Part shown: in pieces, positions 1,627-26,452 of the stretch | Layout of the letters: the number at the start of each line of letters is the position of its first letter | Position numbering within the stretch: position 1 is the stretch's first letter | From: Burkholderiales bacterium | Lineage (GTDB): Bacteria; Pseudomonadota; Gammaproteobacteria; Burkholderiales; SG8-39 | DNA length: 55,064 bases | NCBI GenBank assembly: GCA_052172655.1 | Contig: JBQMQE010000002.1 | Location: 1-55,064 of the forward strand | Direction: 5' to 3' | Notes under the pieces: generated by a model | The model's input: only the letters and a program-made list of their open reading frames with translations | Database searches by the model: none | What the model was told of the DNA's origin: nothing | Made by a program: the position numbers and the translations under genes

Positions 1627-1764
1627 GCGCGAAGCTGAAAGTTCGAACAACATAATCGATTACGGTGCCGTCGCGCGCCACCGCATCGATCTGCGACGGG
1701 TCGAGGCTGAACAAAACCGCGACGCGATCAATAACGATAATTCAAGACAGTGGAGCTCTCTATC

Positions 1765-3405
1765 ATGTACGAAAAATCCAATGCCGACGGCAAACAGCCG
1801 ATGCCGTCCGGTCTCGCGCTGCTGCGCGACCCGGCCCGCAACCGGGGCACCGGCTTTACCGAAGCGCAGCGCGACGAGTTCAATCTGCGCGGCTTTCTGC
1901 CGCCTCGCGTGCACAACCAGGATGAGCAGGCCGCGCGCGTGCTGGCGCGCCTGCGCCTGCTAACCGACCCGTTGGAAAAATTCGTCGCGCTCAACGCCCT
2001 GCACGATCGCAACGAAACGCTGTACTTCCGCGTGCTATGCGACAACATCGACGAAATGCAGCCTCTGGTCTACACCCCGACAGTCGGATTGGCGTGCCAG
2101 AAGTTCGGCCACATCTTTCAGCGGCCGCGCGGCCTGTTCATTGGCGCGAACGACCGCGGACGCATCGCGCAGTTGTTGCGCAACTGGCCTTATCATGCCG
2201 GTATCATCGTCGTCACCGACGGCGAGCGCATTCTCGGCCTGGGTGATCTGGGCGCCAACGGCATGGGAATTCCGGTGGGGAAGCTGTCGCTCTACACCGC
2301 CTGTGCCGGCGTGCATCCGCAACTGTGCCTGCCGGTTACCCTCGATGTCGGCTGCAATAACACCGCAATGCTCGAGGACCCGTTTTACGTCGGGCTGCGC
2401 CAGCGCCGGCTGACAGGAGCGGCCTACGACGAAATGCTGGACGAATTCATTAGCGCGGCATCAGAGGTATTTCCAGGCGTGGTGATTCAGTTCGAGGATT
2501 TTGCCAATCACAATGCGTTCCGGCTGCTGAAGAAATACCGCGATCGCGTCTGCACGTTCAACGACGACATCCAGGGCACGGCGGCGGTCGCGCTGGCGGG
2601 CATCTTCTCGGCACTGCGCGTTACCGGCGGCAAGTTCACCGAGCAGAAACTGTTGTTTCTCGGCGCGGGCGAAGCCGCCACCGGAATCTGCAATCTCGTG
2701 GTGTCGGCGATGGTCGCCGAAGGCTTAACCGAAGCCGCAGCGCGCCAGCGTTGCTGGACCGTCGATTCGCGTGGCCTGGTGGTAAAAAGCCGCACCGATC
2801 TTGCCGAGCACAAATTGGCTTACGCTCACGACCACCCGCCGATTGGCGATTTTCTCACTGCGATCAAGACCCTCAAGCCCACCGCCATCATTGGCGTGGC
2901 GGCGATCGGCGGCACCTTCACCCAGGAAGTGCTGGAGGAAATGGCGCGCATAAACGAGCGACCGATTGTGTTCGCGCTTTCGAATCCGACCTCCAAAGCC
3001 GAGTGCAACGCCGTGGAAGCGTATCGCTGGACCAACGGACGGGCGCTGTTCGCTTGCGGCAGCCCGTTCGACCCGGTCAAGCGCGACGGCAAGACCTACG
3101 TGCCGCGGCAGGGCAACAACTCCTACATCTTTCCCGGCATAGGTCTGGGCGCGATCGCCAGCCGAGCGCGGCAGATCACGGACGAAATGTTCATGGGCGC
3201 GGCGCACACCCTTTCGCATCTCGTCACCGAATCCGATCTCGGGCAGGGCAGCCTCTACCCTGCACTGCCGCGCATCCGCGAGGTCTCGGCGCACATTGCT
3301 GCGGCCGTCGCGGAAACCGCGTACAAACATGGACTCGCCGGCAAGCCCAGGCCCGGGGACGTGCTGGCCGACGTGCGCTCGGCAATGTTCGATCCGCATT
3401 ACTAG
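1765..3405 (+). CDS. maeA: NAD(P)-dependent malic enzyme (SfcA/MaeA type, ~546 aa)
   Basis: ORF 1750-3405. The ATG at 1765 has GGAG 9 nt upstream. Motifs LYFRV..MQPLVYTPTVG, VVTDGERILGLGDLGANGMGIPVGKLSLYTACAG, FNDDIQGTAAV and LSNPTSKAE match E. coli MaeA along its length. Confidence 0.93.
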   Translation: MYEKSNADGKQPMPSGLALLRDPARNRGTGFTEAQRDEFNLRGFLPPRVHNQDEQAARVLARLRLLTDPLEKFVALNALHDRNETLYFRVLCDNIDEMQPLVYTPTVGLACQKFGHIFQRPRGLFIGANDRGRIAQLLRNWPYHAGIIVVTDGERILGLGDLGANGMGIPVGKLSLYTACAGVHPQLCLPVTLDVGCNNTAMLEDPFYVGLRQRRLTGAAYDEMLDEFISAASEVFPGVVIQFEDFANHNAFRLLKKYRDRVCTFNDDIQGTAAVALAGIFSALRVTGGKFTEQKLLFLGAGEAATGICNLVVSAMVAEGLTEAAARQRCWTVDSRGLVVKSRTDLAEHKLAYAHDHPPIGDFLTAIKTLKPTAIIGVAAIGGTFTQEVLEEMARINERPIVFALSNPTSKAECNAVEAYRWTNGRALFACGSPFDPVKRDGKTYVPRQGNNSYIFPGIGLGAIASRARQITDEMFMGAAHTLSHLVTESDLGQGSLYPALPRIREVSAHIAAAVAETAYKHGLAGKPRPGDVLADVRSAMFDPHY

Positions 3406-3415
3406 ACGAAAGCCA

Positions 3416-3460
3416 GCGCGGCGTTCCCGCAGAACGGGGACGCCGCGCGCTGTCGTTTGA
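3416..3460 (+). terminator. Strong hairpin downstream of the malic enzyme gene (14-bp stem, 5-nt loop), followed by a T-containing tract
   Basis: gcgcggcgttcccg (3416-3429) pairs with cggggacgccgcgc (3435-3448) with one G-U pair. The downstream tract tgtcgtttgat is only moderately T-rich. Confidence 0.55.
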
Positions 3461-3478
3461 TCTACGGTTTGATCTACG
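3455..3478. repeat. Perfect 12-bp tandem duplication GTTTGATCTACG x2
   Basis: 3455-3466 and 3467-3478 are identical. Read directly from the sequence. Confidence 0.9.
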
Positions 3479-3482
3479 TCAA
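3469..3482. promoter_or_regulatory. FNR-like box TTGAT-CTAC-GTCAA (9/10) with class-II-like spacing to a -10 (TATGCT, 3504-3509)
   Basis: One mismatch to TTGAT-N4-ATCAA. The box centre at 3475.5 would sit near -41 relative to a TSS predicted at about 3516-3517. It lies upstream of the nfn-rbr-nifJ-DHOD-like operon. Confidence 0.45.
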
Positions 3483-3695
3483 TGCGCTGACGACTGCCGG
3501 GACTATGCTTCGATTATCGTTGCAGGAGGACGCAGCGTTATCCGTGTTGACTCGCGACAACGGCGTGCCAGGCTGATGCGACTGCGGCCTGATTGCGCCG
3601 GATTGCTGCGTTCGACCAGCGCCATCGTGCTGATCATCCGCAAAGCGACTTTCCTTCGCCCGACTAACCCTTGAACAGGGCCGCAAGCTTATTCT

Positions 3696-6086
3696 ATGTA
3701 CACGATTGTCCGCCGCGAAGTATTTTCCGACACGACCTTCCTGTGGGAGGTGCTGGTTCCCGACGTGGCAAACTCGGCGCAGCCCGGCCATTTCGTCATG
3801 GTGCGGATGCACGAGGGCAGCGAGCGAATTCCGCTGACGGTGGCCGATTTCGACCGCGACAAAGGCACCATCACCATGGTGATCCAGTCGCTCGGCAAGA
3901 CCACGCTCGAGATGCGGGATCATTACAAGGAGGGCGACAGCTTCGCCGATTTCGTCGGCCCTCTCGGCATGCCGCAGCACGTGAGCAAGGTCGGGCACGT
4001 AGTGCTGGTCGGCGGCGGGCTCGGCGTGGCGCCGATATATCCGCAGTTGCGCGCGTTCAAGAACGCCGGCAATCGCACCACGGGCATCATCGGTTTTCGC
4101 AACAAGGACCTCGTGTTCTGGGAAGAGCGCTTCAACGCGTTCTGCGACGAGCTGATCGTCTGCACCGACGACGGCAGCTACGGCACGCCGGGCTTCGTTA
4201 CCTCGGCGCTGAAACAGGTGCTCGAGCGCGACAAACCGGATCTGGTCATCGCCATCGGGCCGCTGCCGATGATGAACGCATGCGTCGAGACGACGCGGCC
4301 CTTTGGCGTGAAGACCATGGTGTCGCTCAACGCGATCATGGTCGATGGCACCGGCATGTGCGGCTCCTGCCGCGTCAGCGTCGGCGGCGAGGTCAAGTTC
4401 GCCTGCGTGGACGGGCCGGACTTTGACGGCCATCAGGTCGACTTCAAGGAACTGGTCCTGCGCCAGCGGCGCTTCAAGGGAGAGGAGTCGAAGGCGAGCG
4501 AAGATTACGCCCATATCTGCCATGTGGAGGAGGTGCTGTTCGAGCAGAACAAGCGCAATTACAAAAAGTACAAAGATCTCTCGCCGCACGCGGTGAAGAT
4601 GCCGGAGCGCGACGCGCTGGAGCGCTCGCGCAATTTCAAGGAAGTGAACCTGGGCTACAGCATGCAAAATGCGCTGGAGGAGGCGGAACGCTGCATCATG
4701 TGCGCCAAGCCCGACTGCATCGCCGGCTGCCCGGTGTCGATCGACATCCCGCGCTTCATCCGCCACCTGCTGGTACGCGATCTCGACGGCGCGCTCGGTG
4801 TCATCAACGAATCCAATCTGTTCCCGTCGGTATGCGGCCGCGTCTGCCCGCAGGAATCGCAGTGCGAGGCCCAGTGTGTCGTCGGCAGGAACAAGAAGAC
4901 CCCGATGGAGTCGGTGGCGATAGGCCGGCTCGAGCGCTTCATCGGCGACAACGCCCGCGCACCCAAGGCGGTGCCGCCGCTGTTCGAGCGCGAACTGGGC
5001 CGGGTCGCCATCGTCGGCTCCGGCCCCTCCGGGCTCGCGGTCGCCGCCGATCTGGCGCGCTACGGCTGCGAGGTCACGGTATTCGAGGCGTTGCACGTGA
5101 TCGGCGGCGTGCTCCAGTACGGGATACCGCCGTTCCGGCTCCCGCGCGACATCATCAGCCGCGAGGTCGACAACCTGAAGAACATGGGCGTCAAGTTCGA
5201 GACCAACAAGGTAATCGGCAAGACGTTCTCCATCCCCAAACTCATGGGCGACATGGGTTTCGACGCGGTCTTCGTCGGCGCCGGCGCCGGCGCGCCATCG
5301 TTTCTCGGCATCCCGGGCGAGTTCGCCGGCCAGGTCTATTCGGCGAACGAATTCCTCACCCGCGTCAACCTGATGGGCGGGGACAAATTTCCCTATCTCG
5401 ACACGCCGATCACCCTAGGCCAGAGCGTGGTCGTGATCGGCGCCGGCAACACGGCCATGGACTGCCTGCGCGTGGCCAAGCGCCTGGGCGCGCCGACGGT
5501 GCGCTGCGTGTATCGCCGTTCCGAGGCCGAGGCGCCGGCGCGCATCGAGGAGATCCGCCATGCCAAGGAAGAAGGCATAGAGTTCTTCTTCCTGCATACG
5601 CCGGTCGAAATCATTATCGACGACGACGGCAGCGTGCGCGGGATGAAGGTGCAGAAGATGATGCTGGGCGAACCCGACGAGAAGGGGCGGCGCAGGCCCA
5701 TGCCCCTGGACGAATTCGTCGAGCTTGAATGCGATACCGCGATCTACGCGCTCGGCACCAAGGCCAACCCGATCGTTACCCAGTCGACGCCGGGGCTGGG
5801 CCTCAACAAGTGGGGCTACATCGTCGCCGACCCGCAGACGCAGGCCACCACCCTTCCGGGGGTGTTTGCCGGCGGGGACATCGTCACCGGTGCGGCGACC
5901 GTCATCCTCGCCATGGGCGCCGGCCGCCGCGCGGCCAGATCCATCGGTGCCTATCTGCAGGGCGGCAAGCAAAGATGGCCCGTTACCCAGGAAGACGCGG
6001 ACGCCTTCGTGCCGCCGGTCGCGCTCGGCGGCGCCGCGCCGGCCGCGGCAGCGCCGACCACCACCCAGAGCGAGAGCAAACCATGA
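3696..6086 (+). CDS. Fused NfnA-like (PyrK-type FAD/[2Fe-2S] reductase) and NfnB/GltD-like (2x[4Fe-4S], FAD, NAD(P)H) oxidoreductase, 796 aa
   Basis: The N-terminal ~280 aa resemble ferredoxin-NADP reductase/PyrK (MYTIVRREV.., GGGLGVAPIY, GTGMCGSCRV..FACVDGPDF). The C-terminal ~470 aa resemble the glutamate synthase small subunit/NfnB (CIMCAKPDCIAGCP, CGRVCPQESQCEAQC, VAIVGSGPSGLAVAADL, VVVIGAGNTAMDC, GVFAGGD). Confidence 0.8.
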   Translation: MYTIVRREVFSDTTFLWEVLVPDVANSAQPGHFVMVRMHEGSERIPLTVADFDRDKGTITMVIQSLGKTTLEMRDHYKEGDSFADFVGPLGMPQHVSKVGHVVLVGGGLGVAPIYPQLRAFKNAGNRTTGIIGFRNKDLVFWEERFNAFCDELIVCTDDGSYGTPGFVTSALKQVLERDKPDLVIAIGPLPMMNACVETTRPFGVKTMVSLNAIMVDGTGMCGSCRVSVGGEVKFACVDGPDFDGHQVDFKELVLRQRRFKGEESKASEDYAHICHVEEVLFEQNKRNYKKYKDLSPHAVKMPERDALERSRNFKEVNLGYSMQNALEEAERCIMCAKPDCIAGCPVSIDIPRFIRHLLVRDLDGALGVINESNLFPSVCGRVCPQESQCEAQCVVGRNKKTPMESVAIGRLERFIGDNARAPKAVPPLFERELGRVAIVGSGPSGLAVAADLARYGCEVTVFEALHVIGGVLQYGIPPFRLPRDIISREVDNLKNMGVKFETNKVIGKTFSIPKLMGDMGFDAVFVGAGAGAPSFLGIPGEFAGQVYSANEFLTRVNLMGGDKFPYLDTPITLGQSVVVIGAGNTAMDCLRVAKRLGAPTVRCVYRRSEAEAPARIEEIRHAKEEGIEFFFLHTPVEIIIDDDGSVRGMKVQKMMLGEPDEKGRRRPMPLDEFVELECDTAIYALGTKANPIVTQSTPGLGLNKWGYIVADPQTQATTLPGVFAGGDIVTGAATVILAMGAGRRAARSIGAYLQGGKQRWPVTQEDADAFVPPVALGGAAPAAAAPTTTQSESKP

Positions 6087-6718
6087 TCTCCTGTCCAAAG
6101 TGCCACCGTCCGATCGAGGGAGATGAAGCCTACATCTGCTGCGCCAACCTGGAACTCAGGTGGAGGTGCAGCGCCTGCGGCAAGGTAAGCGAGGGCTTCG
6201 CCTTCCCCTATGGCATGTGTCCGCATTGCAAAGGCAAGCTCGAGATGCTCGAGCGCGGGCCGATCGACGACAGCAAAGGCCTGGATGCCATCCGCGCCGC
6301 ATTCGAAATCGAACTCGGCGGCCATGCCTTCTACCAGCGCGCCGCGCGCGACGCGAAAGACCCGGCGCTTAGTGAACTCTTCGGCCGTTTCGCCGAGATG
6401 GAGCGAGAGCACATGCAGACCTTGTCCAAGCGCTACCACGCGAACCTGCCGCAGCCGGCCGAGGATTTCCAGATCGATCGCGCGGCCATCTTTGCCGGCG
6501 TCGAGCGCAAGCCCGAGGATCCGGCCAATCTGTTCCGCATCGCCATCGCGTTCGAGGAGCGGGCGGTGACATTCTTCAGCGAGCAGGGCGCGCGCGCGCC
6601 CGAAGCTTCGGTCGAGCGCGAGCTGTACAAGGAACTCGCGGCGGAAGAGCGCGAGCATGTGGCGCTGCTTGCTACCGAGTATGCGCGCTGGAAGGCCGGC
6701 AAGGCCGGACTTCTCTAG
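6083..6718 (+). CDS. Reverse-rubrerythrin-like protein: N-terminal 8-Cys zinc-ribbon/rubredoxin-like module plus C-terminal ferritin-like diiron domain (211 aa)
   Basis: The ATG at 6083 overlaps the upstream TGA (ATGA). Cys at positions 4, 7, 19, 20, 29, 32, 46 and 49 (CPKC, CC, CSAC, CPHC). Two E...ExxH sets are present (EIELGG..EMEREH; FEERA..AEEREH). Confidence 0.75.
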   Translation: MISCPKCHRPIEGDEAYICCANLELRWRCSACGKVSEGFAFPYGMCPHCKGKLEMLERGPIDDSKGLDAIRAAFEIELGGHAFYQRAARDAKDPALSELFGRFAEMEREHMQTLSKRYHANLPQPAEDFQIDRAAIFAGVERKPEDPANLFRIAIAFEERAVTFFSEQGARAPEASVERELYKELAAEEREHVALLATEYARWKAGKAGLL

Positions 6719-6764
6719 CAGCACGGCCGCGGCAAGGGCCAATGAAAACTAGCGAAAGGAAACC

Positions 6765-9700
6765 ATGAGCAACCGCCTGGCCGTCCTCGAGGGCAACGAG
6801 GCCGCTGCACGCATCGCCCACCTCACCAACGAGGTAATTGCGATCTATCCGATCACGCCGTCGTCGGGCATGGGCGAGTTCGCCGATGCATGGTCGGCGG
6901 CCCGCCATAAGAACATCTGGGGCGCCATTCCCGAAGTCATCGAGATGCAGAGCGAAGCCGGCGCCGCAGGCGCGGTGCACGGCTCGCTGCAGGCCGGCGC
7001 GCTCACGACGACCTTCACCTCGTCGCAGGGGCTGCTGTTGATGATCCCCAACATGTTCAAGATCGCGGGCGAACTCACGCCTGCGGTATTCCATATTGCC
7101 GCGCGCACGGTGGCCACACATGCGCTGTCCATCTTCGGCGACCACAGCGACGTGATGGCCGCACGCATGACCGGCTGGGGCATGCTCGCCGCGGCCAGCG
7201 TGCAGGAAGCGCAGGACATGGCGATGATCGCCCAGATGGCGACGCTGCGTTCGCGCGTGCCGTTCATGCATTTTTTCGACGGCTTTCGCACCAGCCACGA
7301 GGTAAACCGGCTGGAATTGCTGCTCGAGGAAGAAGTGCGCGAGTTGATCGACGACGAGTTGGTCACAGCGCATCGCGCGCGCGCACTCAATCCGGACAAG
7401 CCCGTGCTGCGCGGCTCGGCGCAGAATCCGGACGTGTTTTTCCAGGCGCGCGAAGCCTGCAACCCATTCTATATAGCGGTGCCGGGTATCGTGCAGGAAA
7501 GCATGGACCGGTTCGCCCAGCTCACCAAGCGTCGCTACAGGCTGTTCGACTATCAGGGCGCCGCCGATGCCGAGCGCGTTCTGGTGCAAATGGGTTCGGG
7601 CGTCGGCGCTTCGGGCGAAGCGGTCCGCGCTCTGGTCGCGCGCGGCGAGAAAGTCGGCCTGCTGACGGTGCGCCTGTACCGGCCGTTCGACACGCAAGCC
7701 TTCGTCGCGGCGCTGCCGAAGAGCGTGCGCGCCATCGCCGTGCTCGACCGCACTAAGGAGCCGGGCGCGATCGGCGAGCCCATGTATCAGGACATCGTCA
7801 CCGCTCTGGTCGAAGCATGGCCGCAGGACGTCGCGACGCCGAAGGTCATCGGCGGCCGTTACGGCCTGTCTTCCAAAGAGTACACGCCGGCCATGGCCAA
7901 GGCGACGCTGGACGAACTCGCGCAAAAACAACCCAAACGTCATTTCACCGTCGGCATCGTCGACGACGTCACCCGCCTGTCGCTGGCCGTGGATGAAAGT
8001 TTCGACACCGAGACCGAAGGCGTGACGCGCGCCGTGTTTTACGGCCTGGGCGCGGACGGCACCGTGGGCGCGACCAAGAACTCGGTGAAAATCATCGGCG
8101 AGAACACGCCGCTGCATGCACAGGGCTATTTTGTCTACGACAGCAAAAAGTCGGGCGCGGTCACCATCTCCCACCTGCGCTTCGGACCGAATCCGATCGA
8201 ATCCACCTATCTCATCCGCCACGCCGATTTCATCGCCTGCCACCAGTTCGAGTTCATGGCGAAGCTCGACGTGCTCGCACTCGCGCGCACCGGCGGCACT
8301 TTTCTGCTGAACAGCCCCTACGGGCCGGACGAGGTATGGGACAAGCTCCCGCGCGAGGCACAGGAGCAGATACTCGCCAAGAAACTGAAGATGTACGTGG
8401 TGGACGCGCTCGCCGTGGCAAAGGAGGCAGGCCTCGCCGGGCGCATCAATACCGTTACGCAAGCCTGTTTCTTCGCCATTTCCGGCATCCTTCCGCGCGA
8501 CGAGGCGATCGAGAAGATCAAGAGCTCGATCCGCAAGACCTACGGCAAGCGCGGCGAGTCCGTGCTCAACCGCAACTTCGCCGCGGTGGACCAGTCGCTT
8601 GCCGCGCTGCGCGAAGTGCAGGTCCCCGGCCGGGCCGATTCGGCGCTGCGCCGCCGGCCGGTGGTGCCGCGCACGGCCCCGGATTTCGTGCAGCGCGTCA
8701 CCGCGATGATGCTCGGCGGCAAGGGCGATCTGCTGCCGGTGTCGGCGCTGCCGATCGACGGCACCTTCCCCACCGCGACCTCGCAATGGGAAAAGCACAG
8801 CATCGCCCATGAGATCCCGATCTGGGACGCCGCCATTTGCACGCAATGTGCGTTGTGCCCGCTGATGTGCCCGCACGCGGCCATCCGCATGAACGTGTAT
8901 TCGCCCGATCAATTGAAAGGGGCGCCGGCGGGCTTCAACAGCGTGCCCTGGAGGAGCAAGGAGGGCGACGGGCTGGCCGGCTGGGCCTATACCCTTCAGG
9001 TGGCGCCGGACGACTGCACCGGCTGCGGCATCTGCGTGGACATCTGCCCGACGCGCAACAAGCAAGAAGCCAAGCGCAAAGCGATCAACATGGAGCCCAA
9101 ACTCGATCATCTCGAGGCCGAGCGGCGCAACTATGAGTTTTTCCTCAGCCTGCCCGAGACGCGCCCGTCGTGGGACACGATCGACCTGCTCAAGGGCTCG
9201 CAATTGCGCATGCCGCTGTTCGAGTACTCCGGCGCCTGCGCCGGCTGCGGCGAGACCCCGTACCTTAAGCTGCTGTCGCAGCTCCACGGCGACCACCTGC
9301 TGGTGGCCAACGCCACCGGCTGCTCCTCGATCTACGGCGGCAACCTGCCCTCGACGCCGTGGGCGCAGAACCGCGAAGGCCAGGGCCCGGCGTGGGCGAA
9401 CAGCCTGTTCGAGGACAACGCCGAGTTCGGGCTGGGCATGCGCCTCGCGCTGGACGCGCAGCGCGACCTGGCGCAAGCGCTGGTGCGCGACCTGCGCGCC
9501 GAGATCGGCGAAGACCTATCCACGGCGCTGCTCGAGGCGCCGCAGGCGTCCGACCAGCAGATTCACGAGCAGCGCGAGCGCGTGAAGCAGTTGAAGGCCA
9601 TCCTGCCGCGGATCAAGTCTCCACAGGCGCAGCAACTGCTGGCCGCGGCCGACAGCCTGGTAACGCGCAGCGTGTGGATCGTCGGCGGCGACGGCTGGGC

Positions 9701-10403
9701 CTACGATATCGGCTACGGCGGCCTGGACCACGTGCTCGCCTCCGGGCGCAACGTTAACATCCTGGTGCTCGACACCGAGGTCTACAGCAATACCGGCGGA
9801 CAGGCATCCAAGTCCACCCAGCGCGGCGCCGTGGCGAAGTTCGCCGCCGCGGGCAAATCCTCCGGCAAAAAGGATCTGGGCATGATCGCCATGGCCTACG
9901 GTAACGTCTACGTCGCCCAGGTGGCGATGGGCGCCAACCCCGTGCAAACGGCGCGCACGTTCCAGGAAGCGGCCTCCTGGCCGGGCACTTCGCTGATCAT
10001 CGCCTATAGCCAATGCATCGCGCACGGCATCGACATGGCCACCGGCATGAGCCATCAGCGCGATGCGGTCAAAAGCGGCTACCTGACCCTGTACCACTAC
10101 GACCCGCGCTTAGGCATGGGCGGCGCAAGTCAGCCACTCAAGCTCGATTCGCGCAAGCCGACCATGCCGGTCGAGCGCTTCACCATGAAGGAAGGCCGCT
10201 ACGCCATGCTCGCGCGGGCTGACCCGGAGCGCGCGAAACAACTGATGGAGACTGCGCAGTCTGCCGCTGAAGCGCGCTGGAGCCTCTACGAGCAGATGGC
10301 GGGCGTGCAGCGTATCGTGACCGAGGACGGCAAACCCGACCCAGAGGGCGACAGCGCGGTAGGCGCCGCGGCCGCGCCGAGTTCGAAGGAGGAGCAAGCA
10401 TGA
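6765..10403 (+). CDS. nifJ: Pyruvate:ferredoxin (flavodoxin) oxidoreductase, single-chain PFOR, 1212 aa
   Basis: Length and motifs fit: IAIYPITPSS, QSEAGAAGAVHG, two ferredoxin-type CxxCxxCxxxCP motifs (CTQCALCPLMCP; CTGCGICVDICP), the TPP region GGDGWAYDIGYGGLDH, and YSNTGGQ. Confidence 0.95.
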   Translation: MSNRLAVLEGNEAAARIAHLTNEVIAIYPITPSSGMGEFADAWSAARHKNIWGAIPEVIEMQSEAGAAGAVHGSLQAGALTTTFTSSQGLLLMIPNMFKIAGELTPAVFHIAARTVATHALSIFGDHSDVMAARMTGWGMLAAASVQEAQDMAMIAQMATLRSRVPFMHFFDGFRTSHEVNRLELLLEEEVRELIDDELVTAHRARALNPDKPVLRGSAQNPDVFFQAREACNPFYIAVPGIVQESMDRFAQLTKRRYRLFDYQGAADAERVLVQMGSGVGASGEAVRALVARGEKVGLLTVRLYRPFDTQAFVAALPKSVRAIAVLDRTKEPGAIGEPMYQDIVTALVEAWPQDVATPKVIGGRYGLSSKEYTPAMAKATLDELAQKQPKRHFTVGIVDDVTRLSLAVDESFDTETEGVTRAVFYGLGADGTVGATKNSVKIIGENTPLHAQGYFVYDSKKSGAVTISHLRFGPNPIESTYLIRHADFIACHQFEFMAKLDVLALARTGGTFLLNSPYGPDEVWDKLPREAQEQILAKKLKMYVVDALAVAKEAGLAGRINTVTQACFFAISGILPRDEAIEKIKSSIRKTYGKRGESVLNRNFAAVDQSLAALREVQVPGRADSALRRRPVVPRTAPDFVQRVTAMMLGGKGDLLPVSALPIDGTFPTATSQWEKHSIAHEIPIWDAAICTQCALCPLMCPHAAIRMNVYSPDQLKGAPAGFNSVPWRSKEGDGLAGWAYTLQVAPDDCTGCGICVDICPTRNKQEAKRKAINMEPKLDHLEAERRNYEFFLSLPETRPSWDTIDLLKGSQLRMPLFEYSGACAGCGETPYLKLLSQLHGDHLLVANATGCSSIYGGNLPSTPWAQNREGQGPAWANSLFEDNAEFGLGMRLALDAQRDLAQALVRDLRAEIGEDLSTALLEAPQASDQQIHEQRERVKQLKAILPRIKSPQAQQLLAAADSLVTRSVWIVGGDGWAYDIGYGGLDHVLASGRNVNILVLDTEVYSNTGGQASKSTQRGAVAKFAAAGKSSGKKDLGMIAMAYGNVYVAQVAMGANPVQTARTFQEAASWPGTSLIIAYSQCIAHGIDMATGMSHQRDAVKSGYLTLYHYDPRLGMGGASQPLKLDSRKPTMPVERFTMKEGRYAMLARADPERAKQLMETAQSAAEARWSLYEQMAGVQRIVTEDGKPDPEGDSAVGAAAAPSSKEEQA

Positions 10404-11407
10404 GCGCCGACCTGCGCAGCCGTTATCTGGGCCTCGAGCTCAAGAATCCCATCGTGGCCGCGGCCTCGCCCATGACCGGCTCGATAGAGAGCCTCAAGCG
10501 GCTGGAGGACGCCGGCGTCGCCGCCGTCGTACTGCCGTCGCTGTTCGAGGAACAGATCGAGCACGAGGAGATGGCCAGCCACAACCTGATGCTGGCGGGC
10601 GCCGAGATCTCGCCCGAAGCGCACGGCTTCTTTCCGGAGATGCAGAACTACAACACCGGTCCCGACAACTATCTGAAGCTGATCGGCGAGGCAAAAAAGA
10701 CGCTCGCGGTGCCGGTGATCCCCAGCCTGAACGGCTACACGCCGGGCGGTTGGACACACATGGCCAAGCAGTTCGAGCAAGCCGGCGCCGACGCGCTCGA
10801 ACTGAACATCTACTTTCTCGCCACCGATCCCGAGGACACAAGCACCGAAATAGAGAAGCGATACATCGACCTGGTGGCATCGGTCAGCCGCATGGTTTCG
10901 ATTCCGGTGGCGGTAAAGGTATCGCCCTACTTCAGCTCCATGGCCAATATGGCTGCGCGGCTCGCCGCGGCCGGCGCGACGGGCCTGGTGCTGTTCAACC
11001 GCTTCATACAACCCGACATCCATCTCGACGAACTCGAGGTGGCGCCGCATCTGGTGCTGTCGACTTCAGACGAACTGCGTCTCGCGCTGCGCTGGATCGC
11101 CATCCTGCGCGGCCGCGTAAAGGCGAGCCTGGCCGCAACGGGCGGAGCGCATACCGCGGACGACGTGCTGAAGCTGCTGCTCGCAGGCGCCGACTGCGTC
11201 ATGGTCGCGAGCAGCCTGCTGCGCAAGGGGCCGAACCATATCGCCACTCTGGTCAGTGGCATCGAAGAATGGATGACCGAGCGCGAATACGACTCGGTCG
11301 AGCAACTGAAGGGCTCGCTCAGCCAACTGTCCTGCCCCGACCCGGCCGCCTTCGAGCGCAGCAATTACATGAAGGCGCTGACCTCGTATACCGGCGATTT
11401 GACTTAG
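10400..11407 (+). CDS. Dihydroorotate dehydrogenase-like flavoprotein (TIM barrel) lacking the catalytic Ser/Cys loop, 335 aa
   Basis: The ATG at 10400 overlaps the nifJ TGA (ATGA). DHOD-family features are present: LKNPIVAAAS, VAVKVSP, ATGGAHTADDVLKLLLAGADCVMVAS. Where class 1 DHOD and DPD have LNxSCP(N/H), this protein has LELNIYFLATDP. Confidence 0.8.
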   Translation: MSADLRSRYLGLELKNPIVAAASPMTGSIESLKRLEDAGVAAVVLPSLFEEQIEHEEMASHNLMLAGAEISPEAHGFFPEMQNYNTGPDNYLKLIGEAKKTLAVPVIPSLNGYTPGGWTHMAKQFEQAGADALELNIYFLATDPEDTSTEIEKRYIDLVASVSRMVSIPVAVKVSPYFSSMANMAARLAAAGATGLVLFNRFIQPDIHLDELEVAPHLVLSTSDELRLALRWIAILRGRVKASLAATGGAHTADDVLKLLLAGADCVMVASSLLRKGPNHIATLVSGIEEWMTEREYDSVEQLKGSLSQLSCPDPAAFERSNYMKALTSYTGDLT

Positions 11408-11539
11408 ACGACGCGGCCTCCGGCGGGCCGCATCATTCCCAAGCCGGATCGTCCCGAAACGCCGGAGCAGTTGCTCGAAAAATGCCGCAACCTGCTCGGC
11501 TGACAGCCGTCCAGCGCAGCCGCGCCGGACGGCGTCAAC

Positions 11540-12817
11540 TCAGAACAGCAGGTTCGGCAGCCAAAGCGTTATGATCGGCACGTAGGTCACAATCACGAGG
11601 AATACGAGCAGGACCGACAGCCACGGCACGGCCGCGCGCACGACCTCGCCGATCGACATTCCGGTGATGCCTGCTGTGACGAAAAGATTGAGGCCGATCG
11701 GCGGCGTCACCATGCCGATCTCGAGGTTTACCACCATGATGATCCCCAGATGCACCGGGTCGATGCCGAGTTGCGTGGCAATCGGAAACAGGATCGGCGC
11801 CAGGATCAGGATGATCCCGGTGGGCTCCATGAACGCGCCTGCCGCGAGCAGCAGCACATTGACAACGATGAGGAAGCCCCACGAAGGCATGCCCCAGGCG
11901 ACGATCTGCTCGGCGATCACCTGCGGAATGCGCTCGGTGGTGAGCACGTGTGCGAACAGCAGCGCGTTGGCGATAATGAACATCAGCATTACCGTCACCT
12001 TGGACGCGTCCACCAGCACGCTGGGCACCTTGCTAAAACCAATATCCCTATAGACGAATACCGCGATCAGGAAAGCGTAGACTGCGGCGACCGCAGCCGC
12101 CTCCGTCGGCGTGAAAATCCCGCCGTAGATGCCGCCGAGAATGATGACCAGCAGCAGCAGGCCCCAGATCGAGTCGCGCCCCGCCACCAGCACCTCGTTT
12201 AGCGACGCGCGCGGCTGGCGCGGCAGGTTCTTGATACGCGCAAGAACCCAGATGGCGATCATCAGCATCAGTCCGAGCACGATCCCCGGCACCACGCCGG
12301 CCATGAACAGTTTGCCCACCGAAGTCTCGGTGGCCGCGCCATATACCACCATCACGATCGACGGCGGGATCAGGATGCCCAGGGTGCCAGCATTGCACAC
12401 GACCCCCGCGGCAAAAGCTTTTGGGTAGCCCGAGCGCACCATCCCGGCAATCACTATCGAGCCGACCGCGACCACGGTTGCGGGCGAGGAGCCCGACACC
12501 GCCGCAAACAGCATGCACGCCAGTACCGACGCAATCGCGAGGCCCCCGCGCAGGTGCCCGACGCAGGCGATGGCGAAGCGGATCATGCGTTTGGCCACGC
12601 CACCAGTGGTCATGAACGCGCCCGACAGGATGAAATACGGGATCGCCAACAAGGTAAAGTGTTCGGAGGTTTCGAACAGTTTCAGCGACAGCGAGGCGAG
12701 CGAATCATGGCCGAACACCATGATGGTCAGCAGTGACGACAGCCCGAGCGCAACCGCCACCGGCATGCCGAGCAGCATGAAGATGAACAACATCACGAAC
12801 AGCGCGAGAGTGGTCAA
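11540..12817 (-). CDS. dctM: TRAP transporter large permease DctM
   Basis: 425-aa polytopic membrane protein with the typical DctM N-terminus (MPVAVALGLSSL..) and 4-nt overlap with the upstream dctQ. Confidence 0.9.
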   Translation of the reverse strand: MTTLALFVMLFIFMLLGMPVAVALGLSSLLTIMVFGHDSLASLSLKLFETSEHFTLLAIPYFILSGAFMTTGGVAKRMIRFAIACVGHLRGGLAIASVLACMLFAAVSGSSPATVVAVGSIVIAGMVRSGYPKAFAAGVVCNAGTLGILIPPSIVMVVYGAATETSVGKLFMAGVVPGIVLGLMLMIAIWVLARIKNLPRQPRASLNEVLVAGRDSIWGLLLLVIILGGIYGGIFTPTEAAAVAAVYAFLIAVFVYRDIGFSKVPSVLVDASKVTVMLMFIIANALLFAHVLTTERIPQVIAEQIVAWGMPSWGFLIVVNVLLLAAGAFMEPTGIILILAPILFPIATQLGIDPVHLGIIMVVNLEIGMVTPPIGLNLFVTAGITGMSIGEVVRAAVPWLSVLLVFLVIVTYVPIITLWLPNLLF

Positions 12818-13365
12818 TTGCCCCCCTGCGTCGGCGGCTCGGCATCATTGCTGCGCAACTTGAGCGCCTCCTCCACTTCGTCGCCCAGCAGGTGGGCTTC
12901 CTTGCCCGTCAGGAGTTGGTAGAGTACCTGTCCAAAGCGGAAGAACAAGAACCCGAAACCGAATGGAAGCACCAGCCGCGGAACCCACTGCGGGATCGGG
13001 ATATCCTGCGCCATGATGCCGATTTGATACATCTTGGCGACGTATACCCAGCCACCGTAGAACACGATCGCCGCGTAGAGCATGCACAGCAACGTGGCCA
13101 CCACGCCGAGCGCACGCGCCTTCGCCGGCGGCAAGCTCTTGACCAGCGCGTCGACGCCGATGTGGCCCCCGACGCGCACACCGTAGGACATGCCAAGAAA
13201 GATCAGAAAGGCGAATAGGTAAGTAACCAGCTCCAGCGCCCAGATGAAGCTGAAATTGAATACATAGCGCGCCACCACCTGAGTGAAGCTGATGAGCGTC
13301 ATGACCGTGAGGAGGAGGGCAATTAGCCCTTCCTCCGCCCGGTCGACGACCTTGCCGAAACTCAT
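12814..13365 (-). CDS. dctQ: TRAP transporter small permease DctQ
   Basis: 183 aa with 4 predicted TM segments, positioned between dctP and dctM. Confidence 0.85.
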   Translation of the reverse strand: MSFGKVVDRAEEGLIALLLTVMTLISFTQVVARYVFNFSFIWALELVTYLFAFLIFLGMSYGVRVGGHIGVDALVKSLPPAKARALGVVATLLCMLYAAIVFYGGWVYVAKMYQIGIMAQDIPIPQWVPRLVLPFGFGFLFFRFGQVLYQLLTGKEAHLLGDEVEEALKLRSNDAEPPTQGGN

Positions 13366-13407
13366 GACACCCCCCCTCCTACGCCATTGGCGGTAGCAGC
13401 GCCGCGC

Positions 13408-14412
<1,005 letters not shown>

Positions 14413-14660: not shown

Positions 14661-14737
14661 TGGTAGGCGCGATTGGACTCGAACCAACGACCCCCACCAT
14701 GTCAAGGTGATGCTCTAACCAGCTGAGCTACGCGCCT
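14661..14737 (-). tRNA. tRNA-Val (anticodon GAC), CCA encoded
   Basis: The reverse complement reads AGGCGCGTAGCTCAGCTGGTTAGAGCATCACCTTGACATGGTGGGGGTCGTTGGTTCGAGTCCAATCGCGCCTACCA. It has a 7-bp acceptor stem, anticodon loop TTGACAT and GGTTCGAGTCC T-arm, and is close to E. coli tRNA-Val(GAC). Confidence 0.92.
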
Positions 14738-14749
14738 AAATGTCCGCGC

Positions 14750-14778
14750 ATTCTAGCCGAAAGCGGCGACTGGCACAA
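14750..14778 (-). promoter_or_regulatory. Sigma70-type promoter for tRNA-Val (TTGTGC-N17-TAGAAT with a GC-rich discriminator)
   Basis: The -10 TAGAAT is the rc of 14750-14755 and the -35 TTGTGC is the rc of 14773-14778. The discriminator GCGCGG precedes the mature 5' end by about 12 nt. Confidence 0.45.
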
Positions 14779-14941
14779 ACCGCGCCGCGCTTCCAAGCGG
14801 TCGGTCCGCAGCGGGATTCGGAATCATCAGCGTCGAGCCTGGCGCCGCGGCGCCGCTTGGAGTCTGGCCGGTTTGGAACGAGGGAGCACGCCCGCATGTA
14901 TTCCCTCAGATCAGAGTCGGACAAAATCCGTTTTCACCGGC

Positions 14942-16603
14942 TCAGCACAGACTCAGCATTTCCGCTGCATGCTTGCGCGTGATGGCGGTAATCTCGGTCC
15001 CCCCCAGCATGCGCGCCACCTCCTCGATCCGTTCTTTCTGGTCAAGCACCGATACCATGGTCTTCACCCTGCCCTCGATGCCGAATTTGCTCACCGACCA
15101 TTGCTGGTCGGCCTGGGCCGCCACCTGCGGCAGATGCGTGACGCACAGCACCTGGTGTTCGCGCCCCAGAGTCCTGAGCTGGCGGCCGACGATCTCGGCC
15201 ACACCACCGCCTATGCCGGCGTCCACCTCGTCGAAAATCAAGGTCGGCACCAGCGCCGCCTTGCTGGTGATCACCTGGATGGCAAGACTGATGCGCGAGA
15301 GTTCGCCGCCGGAGGCCACTTTGGCGAGCGAGCGCGCCTCCACCCCCGGATTGGCGGCGACCAGAAACTCGACCAGTTCCGCGCCATGCAGGCTGCCCTC
15401 CGGCGGATACGGGTTGAGCGCCACCTCGAACTTGCCGCCCGCCATGGCGAGTTGTTGCATCGCCTGCGTCACCTCCTTGCCGAGCTTGGCGGCGGCCTTT
15501 TTCCTGCCCGCGCTCAGCTTGGCCGCCAGGTCGAAGTAGCTCGTGCGCGCCTGCTGCTCCTCCCTCACCAGAGTCTCCAGGTTGGAGGCAATCTCAAGTT
15601 CGGCCAGGCGCGCCTGCAGTTGCCGCAGGTGTTCGGGCAGTTCCTGCGGCGCCAGGCGGAACTTGCGTGCGCTGCCGTGAATCGCCTCCATGCGCGCCTC
15701 CACCGCGGCGAACCGCTGCGGGTCCAGTTCGAGCCGGTCCGCGTAATGGCGCAGTGCGTAGACAGCCTCCTGCACCTGCGCCTCGCCCGAGCGGATGAGT
15801 TCGAGTGCGTCGCGCAGGTGTGCGTCGTAGTCCAGCAATGCCTCCAGCCGCGCGCCCGTGCGCGCGAGCAGCGGCAGGCAGGCCGCGTCGGCCTCCGACA
15901 GGGTATCCAGCGCCGCCTGCACGCCCTCGATCAGCCCGGTCGCATGCGCCAGACGGGTGTGTTCGGCCTGCACCGCATCCCATTCGCCGGGCTGCAGCGC
16001 CAACTGCTCGAGTTCGCGCGCCTGCCAATGCAGCTGCTCGCGTTCGGCATTGCGCTGCGCCGCGTGGGTCTCGTACTCGGTGCGCGCCTGCGCCAGCTTC
16101 TGCCATTGCCGATACGCCGCCGCCACCTGGGCCGCGAGCGGCGCGAGGCCGGCGTGCGCATCCAGCAATGCGCGCTGGGCATCGGCTTTGAGCAGGGACT
16201 GGTGCGCATGCTGGCCGTGGATGTCTACCAGCCATTCGCCCGCCTCGCGTAACTGGCCGAGCGTGGCCGGCCGGCCGTTGACGAACGCGCGCGAGCGCCC
16301 GTTCTTGTCGATTACCCGGCGCAACAGGAGCAGGCCGGGATCGCCCTCGAGCTCGGCCGCGCGCAGCCATAGTGCGAGTTCTGGCAGCGTCTGGATGTCG
16401 AATTCGGCGCTGACGTCCGCGCGCTCGCAACCGGCGCGCACCGCGGCCGCATCGCCGCGCTCGCCCAGAGTCAGCGCCAGCGCGTCGACGAGGATGGACT
16501 TGCCGGCGCCGGTTTCGCCGGTGAGCACTGTAAACCCGGCGTGGAATTCGAGTTCGAGCGAATCGACAATGACAAAATCGCGGATGCTGAGCGTCCGCAG
16601 CAT
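14942..16603 (-). CDS. recN: DNA repair protein RecN
   Basis: MLRTLSIRDFVIVDSLELEFHAGFTVLTGETGAGKSI.., followed by long coiled-coil and a C-terminal SGGELSRISLA signature. The start was moved to the ATG at 16603, which matches the E. coli N-terminus. Confidence 0.92.
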   Translation of the reverse strand: MLRTLSIRDFVIVDSLELEFHAGFTVLTGETGAGKSILVDALALTLGERGDAAAVRAGCERADVSAEFDIQTLPELALWLRAAELEGDPGLLLLRRVIDKNGRSRAFVNGRPATLGQLREAGEWLVDIHGQHAHQSLLKADAQRALLDAHAGLAPLAAQVAAAYRQWQKLAQARTEYETHAAQRNAEREQLHWQARELEQLALQPGEWDAVQAEHTRLAHATGLIEGVQAALDTLSEADAACLPLLARTGARLEALLDYDAHLRDALELIRSGEAQVQEAVYALRHYADRLELDPQRFAAVEARMEAIHGSARKFRLAPQELPEHLRQLQARLAELEIASNLETLVREEQQARTSYFDLAAKLSAGRKKAAAKLGKEVTQAMQQLAMAGGKFEVALNPYPPEGSLHGAELVEFLVAANPGVEARSLAKVASGGELSRISLAIQVITSKAALVPTLIFDEVDAGIGGGVAEIVGRQLRTLGREHQVLCVTHLPQVAAQADQQWSVSKFGIEGRVKTMVSVLDQKERIEEVARMLGGTEITAITRKHAAEMLSLC

Positions 16604-16605
16604 AT

Positions 16606-17499
16606 CTACATTTCGCTCCAATGCAGCTTCTCGCGCAACATGGCGTAGTAGCTGTAGCCGGGCGGATGGACAAAGCGGATGGAATGCGCCGCGCGGCGCA
16701 CGATCACCTTGTCATCGACTGCCAGCTCGGAATGCGGCTGACCGTCGAAATGCAGGCTCGCGCCGAGGGCACGCTGCTTGATGGTAATCTCGATCACACA
16801 GCGGTCGCTCACTGTAATCGGGCGATTGGACAGCGTATGCGGACAGACAGGTACCAGCGCGATACCGGGCACGTTCGGCTGCAATATCGGACCATTGGAG
16901 GAAAGCGCGTAGGCGGTGGAGCCTGTGGGGGTGGCCACGATGATGCCATCGGAGCGCAGATCGTAGACGAACTGGCCGTCGATATGCACCAGGAACTCGA
17001 TCATGCGGCCGGTCGCACCCTTGTTAACGACGATATCGTTGAGCGCCTGGGTGCTGAAAACCTCCTTTTCCCCGCGCAGCACCCGAGCCTCCAGCATGAT
17101 GCGCTCTTCGATTGTGTACTGGCCGGAGAGCAGCAGCTCGATGGTTTCCCGCATGTTCGAGAACGCGATGTCGGTCATGAACCCTAGCCGCCCCTGGTTT
17201 ATCCCGACCAGGGGCACTGCGTGAGCGGCCAGATGACGCGCGGCCGAAAGCATGCTGCCGTCGCCACCCAACACCACGGCGAGATCGGCCCGCTCGCCGA
17301 TGGCGGCATAATCCGCGGCGGTGAAACTGTTCCTGCCAATCTTGGCTGCAGTCTCTTTTTCGATCAACACGGCGCAGCCGCGCTGCTGCAGCAGCTGCGC
17401 CAAACCGAGCAGCGACTCGGCGATTTCGGCAGTGTTATAGCGGCCGATCAGTGCGACGGTTTTGAACGCGGGGGGCATCACGTTGAAATTAAACCACAT
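16606..17499 (-). CDS. nadK: NAD kinase
   Basis: Contains GGDGSMLSAAR and GINQGRLGFMTD. The stop lies 2 nt before the recN ATG. The start is uncertain (ATG at 17499 or 17478). Confidence 0.87.
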   Translation of the reverse strand: MWFNFNVMPPAFKTVALIGRYNTAEIAESLLGLAQLLQQRGCAVLIEKETAAKIGRNSFTAADYAAIGERADLAVVLGGDGSMLSAARHLAAHAVPLVGINQGRLGFMTDIAFSNMRETIELLLSGQYTIEERIMLEARVLRGEKEVFSTQALNDIVVNKGATGRMIEFLVHIDGQFVYDLRSDGIIVATPTGSTAYALSSNGPILQPNVPGIALVPVCPHTLSNRPITVSDRCVIEITIKQRALGASLHFDGQPHSELAVDDKVIVRRAAHSIRFVHPPGYSYYAMLREKLHWSEM

Positions 17500-17551
17500 C
17501 GCCCCTATTTCGTGTTGATGAAGACGAGTAAATTGTGGGTAGAATGCAACC

Positions 17552-18571: not shown

Positions 18572-18591
18572 TCGCGCCGCGGCCACAGTCG

Positions 18592-19683: not shown

Positions 19684-19692
19684 GATAGTCGC

Positions 19693-19723
19693 CGCTGGCT
19701 CGCGCGCATCGCGTGAGCCAGCG
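19693..19723 (+). terminator. Hairpin after hemH (9-bp stem cgctggctc/gagccagcg) without a clear T-run
   Basis: The inverted repeat was read directly. The lack of a U-tract lowers confidence. Confidence 0.3.
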
Positions 19724-19808
19724 CTAGACCCGCTTGCCGCCCCCTGCCTCGCCCGCCTGCGGCAGCCTCGGGCGTGCTCGCTTTGCATGCACCGAATCGT
19801 GCCCTCCA

Positions 19809-19836
19809 CTTGAAATGCACTGACCTGCCCCCATCT
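19809..19836 (+). promoter_or_regulatory. Sigma32 (RpoH)-type heat-shock promoter for grpE: CTTGAAA-N13-CCCCATCT
   Basis: Near-perfect match to the E. coli sigma32 consensus CTTGAAA / CCCCATnT, about 30 nt upstream of the grpE ATG. Confidence 0.65.
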
Positions 19837-19869
19837 GTCCAGAGGTTATTGGAAGACTAGAGGCAAGTG

Positions 19870-20453: not shown

Positions 20454-20488
20454 TCCTGACAAGCATTTCATTCATCGAGGAACACACT

Positions 20489-22414: not shown

Positions 22415-22436
22415 AGCATGAGCAGCAAGGCAGTGA

Positions 22437-26449: not shown

Positions 26450-26452
26450 TTG

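Follow-up and report, generated by a model that had tools for sequence, protein, structure and literature searches.

Where do the electrons of pyruvate oxidation go when the gene for pyruvate:ferredoxin oxidoreductase (PFOR) is embedded among genes for other redox proteins? This question is raised by four consecutive same-strand genes in a 55,064-nt stretch of DNA from a Burkholderiales bacterium (contig JBQMQE010000002.1 of assembly GCA_052172655.1; the whole stretch is hereafter referred to as the window). These genes, denoted here genes 1 to 4, encode, respectively, a fusion of the NfnA and NfnB subunits of NADH-dependent reduced-ferredoxin:NADP+ oxidoreductase (Nfn), a cysteine-rich diiron ferritin-like protein, PFOR (nifJ), and a protein resembling dihydroorotate dehydrogenase (DHOD). 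In a previous reading of the window made without database searches (the sequence-only reading), the four products were taken to constitute one dedicated electron path between PFOR and NAD(P)(H), a multisubunit analog of pyruvate:NADP+ oxidoreductase (PNO). The comparison with other genomes described here leads to a different conclusion: the cluster consists of two autonomous gene pairs set next to each other, one encoding the Nfn fusion and the ferritin-like protein, and the other encoding PFOR and the DHOD-like protein. We place high confidence in this anatomy and two-module structure.

Conservation of the PFOR/DHOD-like gene pair across bacteria

Gene 3 encodes a canonical homodimer-type pyruvate:ferredoxin (flavodoxin) oxidoreductase that scores 1728 bits against the TIGR02176 profile (cut-off 911) and 1360 bits against the PFOR of M. 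thermoacetica (6cin) over residues 7–1179. The POR_N, PFOR_II, POR, EKR, 2x[4Fe-4S] and TPP_enzyme_C domains are all present, the last 33 residues are of low complexity, and the domain search detected no cytochrome-P450-reductase-like flavodoxin/FNR NADPH domain in this protein.

The neighborhoods of the DHOD-like gene were explored in two surveys. In the first, an alignment of 14 DHOD-like sequences was used as the query against one genome per species (GTDB), and the best 80 of the 594 confirmed matches were kept, with 10-kb flanks. In the second, metagenome contigs were searched with an alignment of divergent DHOD-like proteins, which returned loci whose DHOD-like proteins are 48–57% identical to that of the window. 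The genome loci represent about 13 phyla and include the complete genome of a cyanobacterium, Chlorogloeopsis fritschii PCC 6912. Among the phyla covered by the two surveys are Planctomycetota, Acidobacteriota, Chloroflexota, Actinomycetota, Cyanobacteriota, Bacteroidota, Verrucomicrobiota, and Deinococcota. A same-strand PFOR gene is located immediately upstream of the DHOD-like gene in 72 of the 76 informative genome loci (four more loci lack upstream sequence), at a distance of exactly -4 nt in 22 of these 72 and of no more than 152 nt in all but one. Among the informative metagenome loci, PFOR is found upstream in 63 of 65, directly in 60 of these and at 1–3 kb, with unrelated inserted genes, in the other three. 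Altogether, PFOR precedes the DHOD-like gene in 135 of the 141 informative loci. No third gene is conserved around the pair: in the all-against-all clustering of the flanking open reading frames (ORFs), the next family is represented in 19 of the 80 loci and has no fixed position. The sequence-only reading had posed the question whether homologs of gene 4 and of the Nfn fusion co-occur with nifJ across genomes; the former do, over this entire phyletic range, and the latter are also found in PFOR-free surroundings (see below).

Two instances of such gene arrangements are documented in the literature. In Synechocystis, nifJ, sll0743, and sll0744 appear in an operon table as a single transcription unit, which is jointly induced under microoxia (PMC11368403). 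In Propionibacterium, PFOR is flanked by GltD-like and DHOD-like genes that are co-transcribed and co-regulated; for this cluster, the authors put forward a bifurcating, quinol-linked complex as a hypothesis (McCubbin et al., 2020; PMC7650540). Both organisms share the PFOR/DHOD-like pairing with the window, and Propionibacterium adds an adjacent NAD(P)H-dependent GltD-type iron-sulfur flavoprotein. Unlike in these organisms, the GltD-type partner in the window is a full NfnA-NfnB fusion accompanied by a ferritin-like protein, and the relatives of the window cluster add a ferredoxin gene; judged by survey locus L130, the Propionibacterium partner is a 566-aa GltD-ferredoxin fusion of the PRK12771 type that lacks a PyrK-like part. 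The statement of the sequence-only reading that no description of the four-protein combination was known thus has to be narrowed, given that the PFOR/GltD-like/DHOD-like set was noted in the former study of Propionibacterium and the nifJ/sll0744 unit in that of Synechocystis; it holds insofar as our literature searches found no functional study.

The partner is not a general attribute of PFOR: ydbK of E. coli has no DHOD-like neighbor, and the partner is therefore not universal. In a few genomes, the pair is interrupted by unrelated genes; judged by eye from the translations, the insert in L095 (3196–5832) resembles a P-type ATPase and that in L129 (2318–3619) a membrane PP2C/SpoIIE-type phosphatase. 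These insertions resemble sll0743 in Synechocystis, and the pair therefore survives insertions without being separated.

The Nfn fusion and the ferritin-like protein as a second module

The linkage of the PFOR/DHOD-like pair with Nfn is sporadic. Nfn/GltD-like genes are absent within 6–10 kb in all but five of the 135 PFOR-linked loci. Genes for NfnA, NfnB, and the ferritin-like protein were found near the pair only in three betaproteobacterial genome loci (L001, L002, L020) and, through gene 2, in L083 and L084. Furthermore, Georgfuchsia toluolica and a Georgfuchsia metagenome-assembled genome (MAG) possess the overlapping Nfn fusion/ferritin-like pair, and neither PFOR nor a DHOD-like gene is located within 8–10 kb of it. 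Given that the DHOD-like gene follows PFOR in nearly all informative loci, that Nfn genes join this pair only sporadically, and that the Nfn/ferritin-like pair stands alone in Georgfuchsia, the four-gene cluster combines two modules. It is PFOR that the DHOD-like gene accompanies, not the PyrK-like and GltD-like parts of the Nfn fusion, and the single dedicated four-protein module of the sequence-only reading is not supported.

In Georgfuchsia, the Nfn/ferritin-like pair (positions 7629–10636 in L081, Georgfuchsia toluolica, and 5629–8636 in L082) is followed by an opposite-strand gene for a 534–536-aa FAD-dependent protein (DUF8436/FAD-depend_C) and by genes for a two-component system containing PAS domains, a context that is common to both genomes.

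Two further loci show other ways in which similar genes are combined with the PFOR/DHOD-like pair. In L088, the order is PFOR, DHOD-like, NfnA, NfnB, with the NfnA and NfnB homologs at 7057–9350. In L130, a 566-aa GltD-like protein of the PRK12771 type, with a C-terminal 2x[4Fe-4S] domain, is encoded directly 5' of PFOR (710–2410), an arrangement that appears to correspond to that of Propionibacterium. Thus, GltD/Nfn-type genes have joined PFOR/DHOD-like pairs on at least three separate occasions, with three distinct architectures (the window clade, L088, and L130/Propionibacterium). Given these three recruitments, the functional link between PFOR and NAD(P)H through GltD/Nfn-type flavoproteins, which was the core of the sequence-only reading, is plausible, and it is the dedicated nature of the module that did not hold up. 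In L020 and L083, which are MAG contigs derived from long reads, the nfn and PFOR genes are frameshifted or fragmented (the PFOR of L083 is split into several short ORFs), probably as a result of assembly error and not of pseudogenization.

Every Nfn hallmark that was examined is present in gene 1, so that the sequence-only reading correctly recognized this gene as a genuine NfnA-NfnB fusion. The profile search identified the domains DHODB_Fe-S_bind, Fer4_20, and Pyr_redox_2. The NfnA part (aa 1–270) scores 314 bits against the small subunit of P. furiosus NfnI (5jca_S) and 258 bits against that of T. maritima Nfn, and the NfnB part (aa ~299–761) scores 500 bits with T. maritima NfnB (4ylf_B) and 468 bits with another Nfn large subunit; the C-terminal tail of the protein is rich in Ala, Pro, and Thr. 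The NfnA part is predicted to carry FAD, an NAD(H) site, and a [2Fe-2S] cluster, and the NfnB part two [4Fe-4S] clusters, FAD, and an NADP(H) site. The [2Fe-2S] motif, IMVDGTGMCGxCRV...KFACVDGP, is identical to that in 5jca_S, 4ylf_A, and 5vj7_B, with Asp in place of the first Cys; in NfnA, this Asp reportedly serves as a ligand. To tell true NfnB apart from monofunctional ferredoxin:NADP+ reductases (Fnor), Huang et al. (2025; PMC12221290) rely on an extended N-terminus, the residues Arg333 and Arg201, and the location of nfnA just upstream. In gene 1, the N-terminus is extended, the NfnB alignment beginning at chain residue 8–9; Arg333 is present, together with Arg201 (P. furiosus numbering) and the conserved efRlp and paRiee motifs; and NfnA is located upstream by virtue of the fusion. 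The protein aligns end to end with both subunits of NfnAB of T. maritima (4YLF) and of P. furiosus NfnI (5JCA) and also retains the 2x[4Fe-4S] cysteines. Unlike in these enzymes, the two subunits are fused into a single 796-aa chain, an architecture already catalogued as NCBIfam PRK12778, and the fusion is translationally coupled to the cysteine-rich diiron ferritin-like protein. By all these sequence features, gene 1 encodes a bona fide Nfn, for which bifurcating/confurcating activity is predicted.

The product of gene 2 consists of an N-terminal zinc-ribbon or rubredoxin-like domain with eight cysteines, followed by a diiron ferritin-like four-helix domain. In the alignment of homologs, the cysteines C4, C7, C19, C20, C29, C32, C46, and C49 are invariant, as are the candidate diiron ligands E77, E107/H110, E158, and E189/H192. 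The pattern of these putative ligands, as read from the sequence (E, ExxH, E, ExxH), and the presence of a Cys4-type metal site in the same chain as the diiron bundle are shared with the rubrerythrin/COG1633 family, including P. furiosus PF1190 (2FZF). The match to 2fzf has E=1.5e-5. The resemblance to true rubrerythrins is marginal (E=0.33 for the closest), and, unlike in classical rubrerythrin, where a rubredoxin domain is C-terminal, the cysteine-rich domain of gene 2 is N-terminal and contains eight cysteines, and the gene is genetically tied to Nfn.

This tie to Nfn is apparent from the "trifunctional" NCBIfam model PRK12775 (1006 aa), of which gene 1 covers positions 1–780 and gene 2 positions 798–1006 (354 bits); neither gene singly reaches the cut-off of 1895 bits. 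Given that PRK12775 is a single model, genes 1 and 2 correspond to one polypeptide in other bacteria. The split in the window is genuine because the best 120 homologs of gene 2 are, without exception, separate proteins (of 211 aa in most cases) and because the 4-nt overlap between the two genes is kept in three relatives, namely Georgfuchsia and two others. Since the ferritin-like protein is fused to Nfn in PRK12775 and accompanies it without PFOR in Georgfuchsia, it belongs with Nfn and not with PFOR. The protective role against O2 and H2O2 that the sequence-only reading assigned to this protein agrees with our own inference, in which the protein is associated with Nfn. In the literature searched, no biochemical account of an Nfn that has a ferritin-like partner was found. 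The genetic welding of the diiron protein to Nfn hints at an accessory function of Nfn in the window variant.

Probable operon organization and a lost ferredoxin gene

Genes 1 to 4 very probably form one operon (Table 1). Genes 1 and 2 are joined by an ATGA stop/start overlap at 6083–6086, and genes 3 and 4 by another at 10400–10403, which is preceded by a Shine-Dalgarno sequence, AAGGAGGA; genes 2 and 3 are separated by 46 nt (6719–6764). The overlaps are due neither to chance nor to sequencing error because the first is kept in relatives and the second recurs in the 22 of the 72 loci mentioned above. Terminator-like sites within the cluster are weak and at the level of chance (9 found vs. 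6.6 expected). The hairpin located between the malic-enzyme gene and gene 1 is the top terminator-like site within 3000–12000 and, as a terminator-like structure, marks the upstream operon boundary and the end of the malic-enzyme transcript. The short gaps, the lack of internal terminators above chance, the sole Fnr-type box 5' of gene 1, and the retention of the four-gene order in five relatives all support a single operon. In these respects, the sequence-only reading was accurate: the four ORFs with their lengths, both overlaps, the 46-nt gap, the upstream hairpin, and the convergent dctM were all found as it described them, its operon claim stands, and its domain calls (those given above for gene 1, Rubrerythrin/ferritin-like for gene 2, full PFOR for gene 3, and DHO_dh for gene 4) agree with ours.

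Table 1. Features of the four-gene cluster and its flanks in the window
Feature	Position	Strand	Evidence or remark
Perfect Fnr/CRP-family-type palindrome TTGATCCAAATCAA	1613..1626		about 130 nt upstream of malic-enzyme gene
NAD-type malic enzyme (oxaloacetate-decarboxylating malate dehydrogenase)	1750..3405	+	NF010052, 714 bits
Intrinsic-terminator-like hairpin	3416..3448	+	14 pairs, 12 of them G-C, then T-rich tail
Fnr/Anr/Dnr-type box TTGATCTACGTCAA	3469..3482		214 nt upstream of gene 1
Gene 1, NfnA-NfnB fusion, 796 aa	3696..6086	+	ORF, family profiles, Nfn structure alignments
Gene 2, cysteine-rich diiron ferritin-like protein, 211 aa	6083..6718	+	ORF, PRK12775, 2fzf
Gene 3, nifJ/PFOR, 1212 aa	6765..10403	+	ORF, TIGR02176, 6cin
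Gene 4, DHOD-like protein, predicted FMN TIM barrel, 335 aa	10400..11407	+	NF005741/PRK07565; PFOR linkage from surveys of loci
Remnant of YfhL-type 2x[4Fe-4S] ferredoxin gene, last 23 codons and stop	11432..11503	+	comparison with relatives
TRAP transporter dctM, dctQ, dctP	11540..14397	-	convergent; downstream boundary, context

Each of the five relatives that have the four-gene cluster (L001, L002, L020, L083, and L084) encodes an intact 80-aa YfhL-type ferredoxin after the DHOD-like protein. In the window, only the 3' end of this gene is recognizable, reading IIPKPDRPETPEQLLEKCRNLLG vs. CIIPDPKHPETPDQLKAKYDRLHA in L001; the 5' part, which encodes both cluster motifs, is deleted. Given that the fifth gene is intact in the relatives and a remnant here, the ancestral cluster consisted of five genes and encoded its own soluble electron carrier.

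The box upstream of gene 1 is part of a tandem 12-mer, GTTTGATCTACG, present in two copies at 3455–3478. Only two TTGAT-N4-RTCAA sites are present in the 55-kb window, compared with 0.11–0.32 expected, and the orthologous clusters of L001, L002, and L084 are preceded by similar boxes. These observations suggest Fnr/Anr-type control of the operon and possibly of the malic-enzyme gene as well, which would fit the microoxic induction of nifJ-sll0743-sll0744 in Synechocystis (PMC11368403). No Rfam match was detected in the 247-nt leader.

The DHOD-like flavoprotein family

Gene 4 belongs to the NCBIfam family NF005741/PRK07565, "dihydroorotate dehydrogenase-like protein" (465.7 bits vs. a cut-off of 303, covering profile positions 2–330 of 335). 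It also matches Pfam DHO_dh weakly (52 bits; cut-off 27) and scores well below the equivalog cut-offs for PyrD (93.6 vs. 269 bits, PRK07259) and PreA (71.3 vs. 335 bits); the top match in the PDB (E=1e-7) indicates remote likeness to DHOD. The AlphaFold2 model is a TIM barrel (pLDDT 90.6), and the folds nearest to it are domain IV of dihydropyrimidine dehydrogenase (DPD) and class-1 DHODs, with 18–22% identity and a TM-score of about 0.67.

Comparison with the class 1B DHOD of L. lactis (PyrD) shows which parts of the active site have been kept. Asn132, Lys170, and Asn197, which contact FMN and the pyrimidine, are retained as N136, K173, and N200; K173 and N200 do not vary in any of the three alignments, and N136 is invariant in the closer relatives and conserved in at least 90% of the sequences family-wide. 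F139 and A141 take the places of the catalytic Cys135 and Asn137, such that the active-site loop ELNISCPN (ELNxSCPN) reads ELNIYFLA, and no aligned representative of the DHOD-like family has Cys at the catalytic position. The family has its own signatures, namely SLFEEQ, W118, F199-N200-R201, and a C-terminal ERxNY; SLFEEQ is followed by a helical insertion (aa 50–85 of gene 4) that is modeled with low confidence. Judging by these residues, gene 4 is neither a dihydroorotate dehydrogenase nor a dihydropyrimidine dehydrogenase. Many database entries for this family (JGI) are labeled "dihydroorotate dehydrogenase (fumarate)", and, given the absence of the catalytic Cys across the family, this label is very likely a systematic mis-annotation. 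The sequence-only reading could name no function for this protein, and rightly so: our literature searches returned the two papers cited above (PMC7650540 and PMC11368403) and one proteomics list, and no functional study of the family; what is available on it amounts to one speculative paragraph and a few operon tables.

A parallel in module types is provided by DPD/PreTA and class 1B DHOD (PyrK-PyrD), the GltD-like, PyrK-like, and DHOD-fold FMN barrel modules of which all have counterparts in the window. In DPD and class 1B DHOD, the FMN barrel is reduced via an iron-sulfur cluster of the partner, and DPD domain IV is the closest structure to gene 4. Unlike these enzymes, gene 4 lacks the catalytic Cys, Asn137, and a C-terminal ferredoxin domain and is linked in genomes to PFOR, not to GltD-like or PyrK-like genes.

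Predicted electron flow and alternatives

The explanation that we consider best, and hold with moderate confidence, is that of one probable and likely oxygen-regulated operon that brings together two conserved, ferredoxin-linked modules, PFOR and Nfn, with the DHOD-like protein as an additional electron outlet. Under this scenario, malate would be imported by DctPQM and turned by the malic enzyme into pyruvate and NADH, PFOR would convert pyruvate into acetyl-CoA, CO2, and reduced ferredoxin, and Nfn would use reduced ferredoxin and NADH to produce 2 NADPH. The two modules would most likely communicate through the soluble 2x[4Fe-4S] ferredoxin that was originally encoded in the cluster and has been lost here. 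The ferritin-like protein would draw low-potential electrons from the iron-sulfur chain of Nfn through its cysteine-rich domain and would either use them to reduce peroxide or O2 or act as some other sink. The malic enzyme, likely the supplier of pyruvate, and the transporter, with a probable function in C4-dicarboxylate uptake, are context and lie outside the operon.

The DHOD-like protein, for its part, would dock on PFOR near the distal [4Fe-4S] cluster, and its FMN would take electrons from PFOR, converting one-electron to two-electron chemistry for some acceptor. We infer this contact because the FMN of the closest folds is fed by an iron-sulfur cluster of the partner and because the gene nearly always follows that of PFOR. 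The specific role of a PFOR-dedicated FMN electron outlet is a tentative assignment, put forward as a candidate with somewhat less than even chances.

Several points weigh against the explanation that we favor. The DHOD-like gene lacks an adjacent PFOR in four genome loci and two metagenome loci, and the neighbors in these six loci are unrelated (histidine phosphatase, CoA-binding protein, DJ-1/PfpI, HypF) and give no functional hint. No natural fusion of PFOR with the DHOD-like protein was detected in 160 loci or among 150 family representatives; the longer representatives have unrelated N-terminal extensions, or else probable mis-called starts or frameshifted C-terminal regions. FMN binding by gene 4 is predicted from the three conserved residues and the modeled fold. 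With the ferredoxin gene lost, electrons might be transferred directly between the proteins in this organism, as in the sequence-only reading; alternatively, the loss could be a peculiarity of the assembly of this MAG. Finally, the Fnr-type boxes were assigned by match to the consensus.

A bolder version of the outlet proposal, which we consider rather unlikely, holds that the DHOD-like flavoprotein is an overlooked second subunit, present almost throughout a widespread class of PFOR, especially in aerobic and facultative bacteria and cyanobacteria, with the FMN fed directly through a DPD-style wire. If this were the case, PFOR would gain a ferredoxin-independent two-electron outlet to NAD(P)+ (via GltD/Nfn modules), quinone, or O2; pyruvate oxidation would be rewired in these organisms, which might explain oxygen-tolerant PFOR activity.

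The proposal of the sequence-only reading, in which all four proteins form one hard-wired complex where PFOR electrons enter the Nfn fusion directly and/or by way of the DHOD-like FMN and from there reach NAD(P)+, with no free ferredoxin and with the diiron protein as an oxygen guard, appears improbable. Translational coupling at two junctions together with the 46-nt gap, the recruitment of GltD/Nfn-type genes next to the pair in three independent architectures, the correspondence of the combined parts to the cofactor chain of DPD, and the loss of the ferredoxin gene from the window cluster all speak for such a complex. Against it, 130 of the 135 PFOR-linked pairs lack an Nfn/GltD-like gene in the vicinity, the Nfn/ferritin-like pair stands alone in Georgfuchsia, and gene 1 keeps all the hallmark residues of ordinary ferredoxin-coupled bifurcation. 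In addition, the soluble ferredoxin encoded as the fifth gene in close relatives argues for ferredoxin-mediated coupling over a PNO-like complex. The proposed chemistry, pyruvate oxidation ending in NADP+ reduction, is indeed that of PNO of Euglena and Cryptosporidium. However, PNO combines PFOR, in one fused protein, with a cytochrome-P450-reductase-like FMN/FAD domain, which is absent in the window, where coupling would most likely proceed via free ferredoxin and Nfn.

Another alternative, to which we likewise assign a low probability, is that the DHOD-like protein is not a productive outlet but rather a partner that provides oxygen or redox protection or regulation of PFOR, such as a redox sensor or an FMN oxidase that passes electrons to O2 or quinone. 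With such a partner, PFOR could operate in aerobes and microaerobes, and most occurrences of the pair are in lineages rich in aerobic or facultative organisms, among them Acidobacteriota, Planctomycetota, Chloroflexota, Cyanobacteriota, Actinomycetota, and Trueperaceae. The Fnr-type boxes in the window, the lack of a general acid/base residue for substrate reduction in the DHOD-like protein, and the induction of the Synechocystis operon under microoxia (PMC11368403) point in the same direction, but the conserved polar pocket (N136, E134, R201, R320, Y323, and SLFEEQ) suggests a specific ligand rather than O2. The third alternative, that gene 4 is a true pyrimidine enzyme (a class-1 DHOD or PreA-type subunit) located beside PFOR by coincidence, accords with the above-cut-off Pfam score, the JGI label of many homologs, and the DHOD/DPD fold but is highly improbable given the replacement of the catalytic Cys and the neighboring Asn across the family, NCBIfam scores far under the DHOD and PreA cut-offs (94 vs. 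269 and 71 vs. 335), and the conservation of PFOR adjacency in about 13 phyla.

Significance of the PFOR-linked flavoprotein

Given that each of the four genes falls in a curated family, no new fold or family is involved. The new elements are how broadly and how tightly the DHOD-like gene is linked to PFOR, the recognition of the window cluster as a composite of two modules, and the variant with the Nfn fusion, its ferritin-like partner, and a ferredoxin gene that has since been lost. PFOR is central to anaerobic and, as is increasingly recognized, aerobic carbon metabolism, and the DHOD-fold flavoprotein linked to it spans about 13 phyla, including a model cyanobacterium, Synechocystis (sll0744). 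Once found, the role of this protein could reveal a new electron outlet or protection device of PFOR, correct the widespread "dihydroorotate dehydrogenase (fumarate)" mis-annotation, and inform metabolic engineering based on PFOR, ferredoxin, and Nfn. With the gene pairs identified here, the function of this flavoprotein can be tested directly.

Genomic surroundings of the cluster

On the downstream side, the cluster faces the convergent transporter genes, the first of which (11540–12817) encodes TRAP DctM (TIGR00786, 485 bits). The part of the window that follows (14661–27646) is core chromosome, and no signs of mobile elements were seen around the cluster. This part starts with tRNA-Val(GAC) on the minus strand (14661–14737), followed by recN, the gene for NAD kinase, hrcA, dnaK, and dnaJ. 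Beyond dnaJ, two proteins with Cds6 C-terminal NTF2-like domains are encoded, one of which also contains TPR repeats and the other a YkuD L,D-transpeptidase domain.

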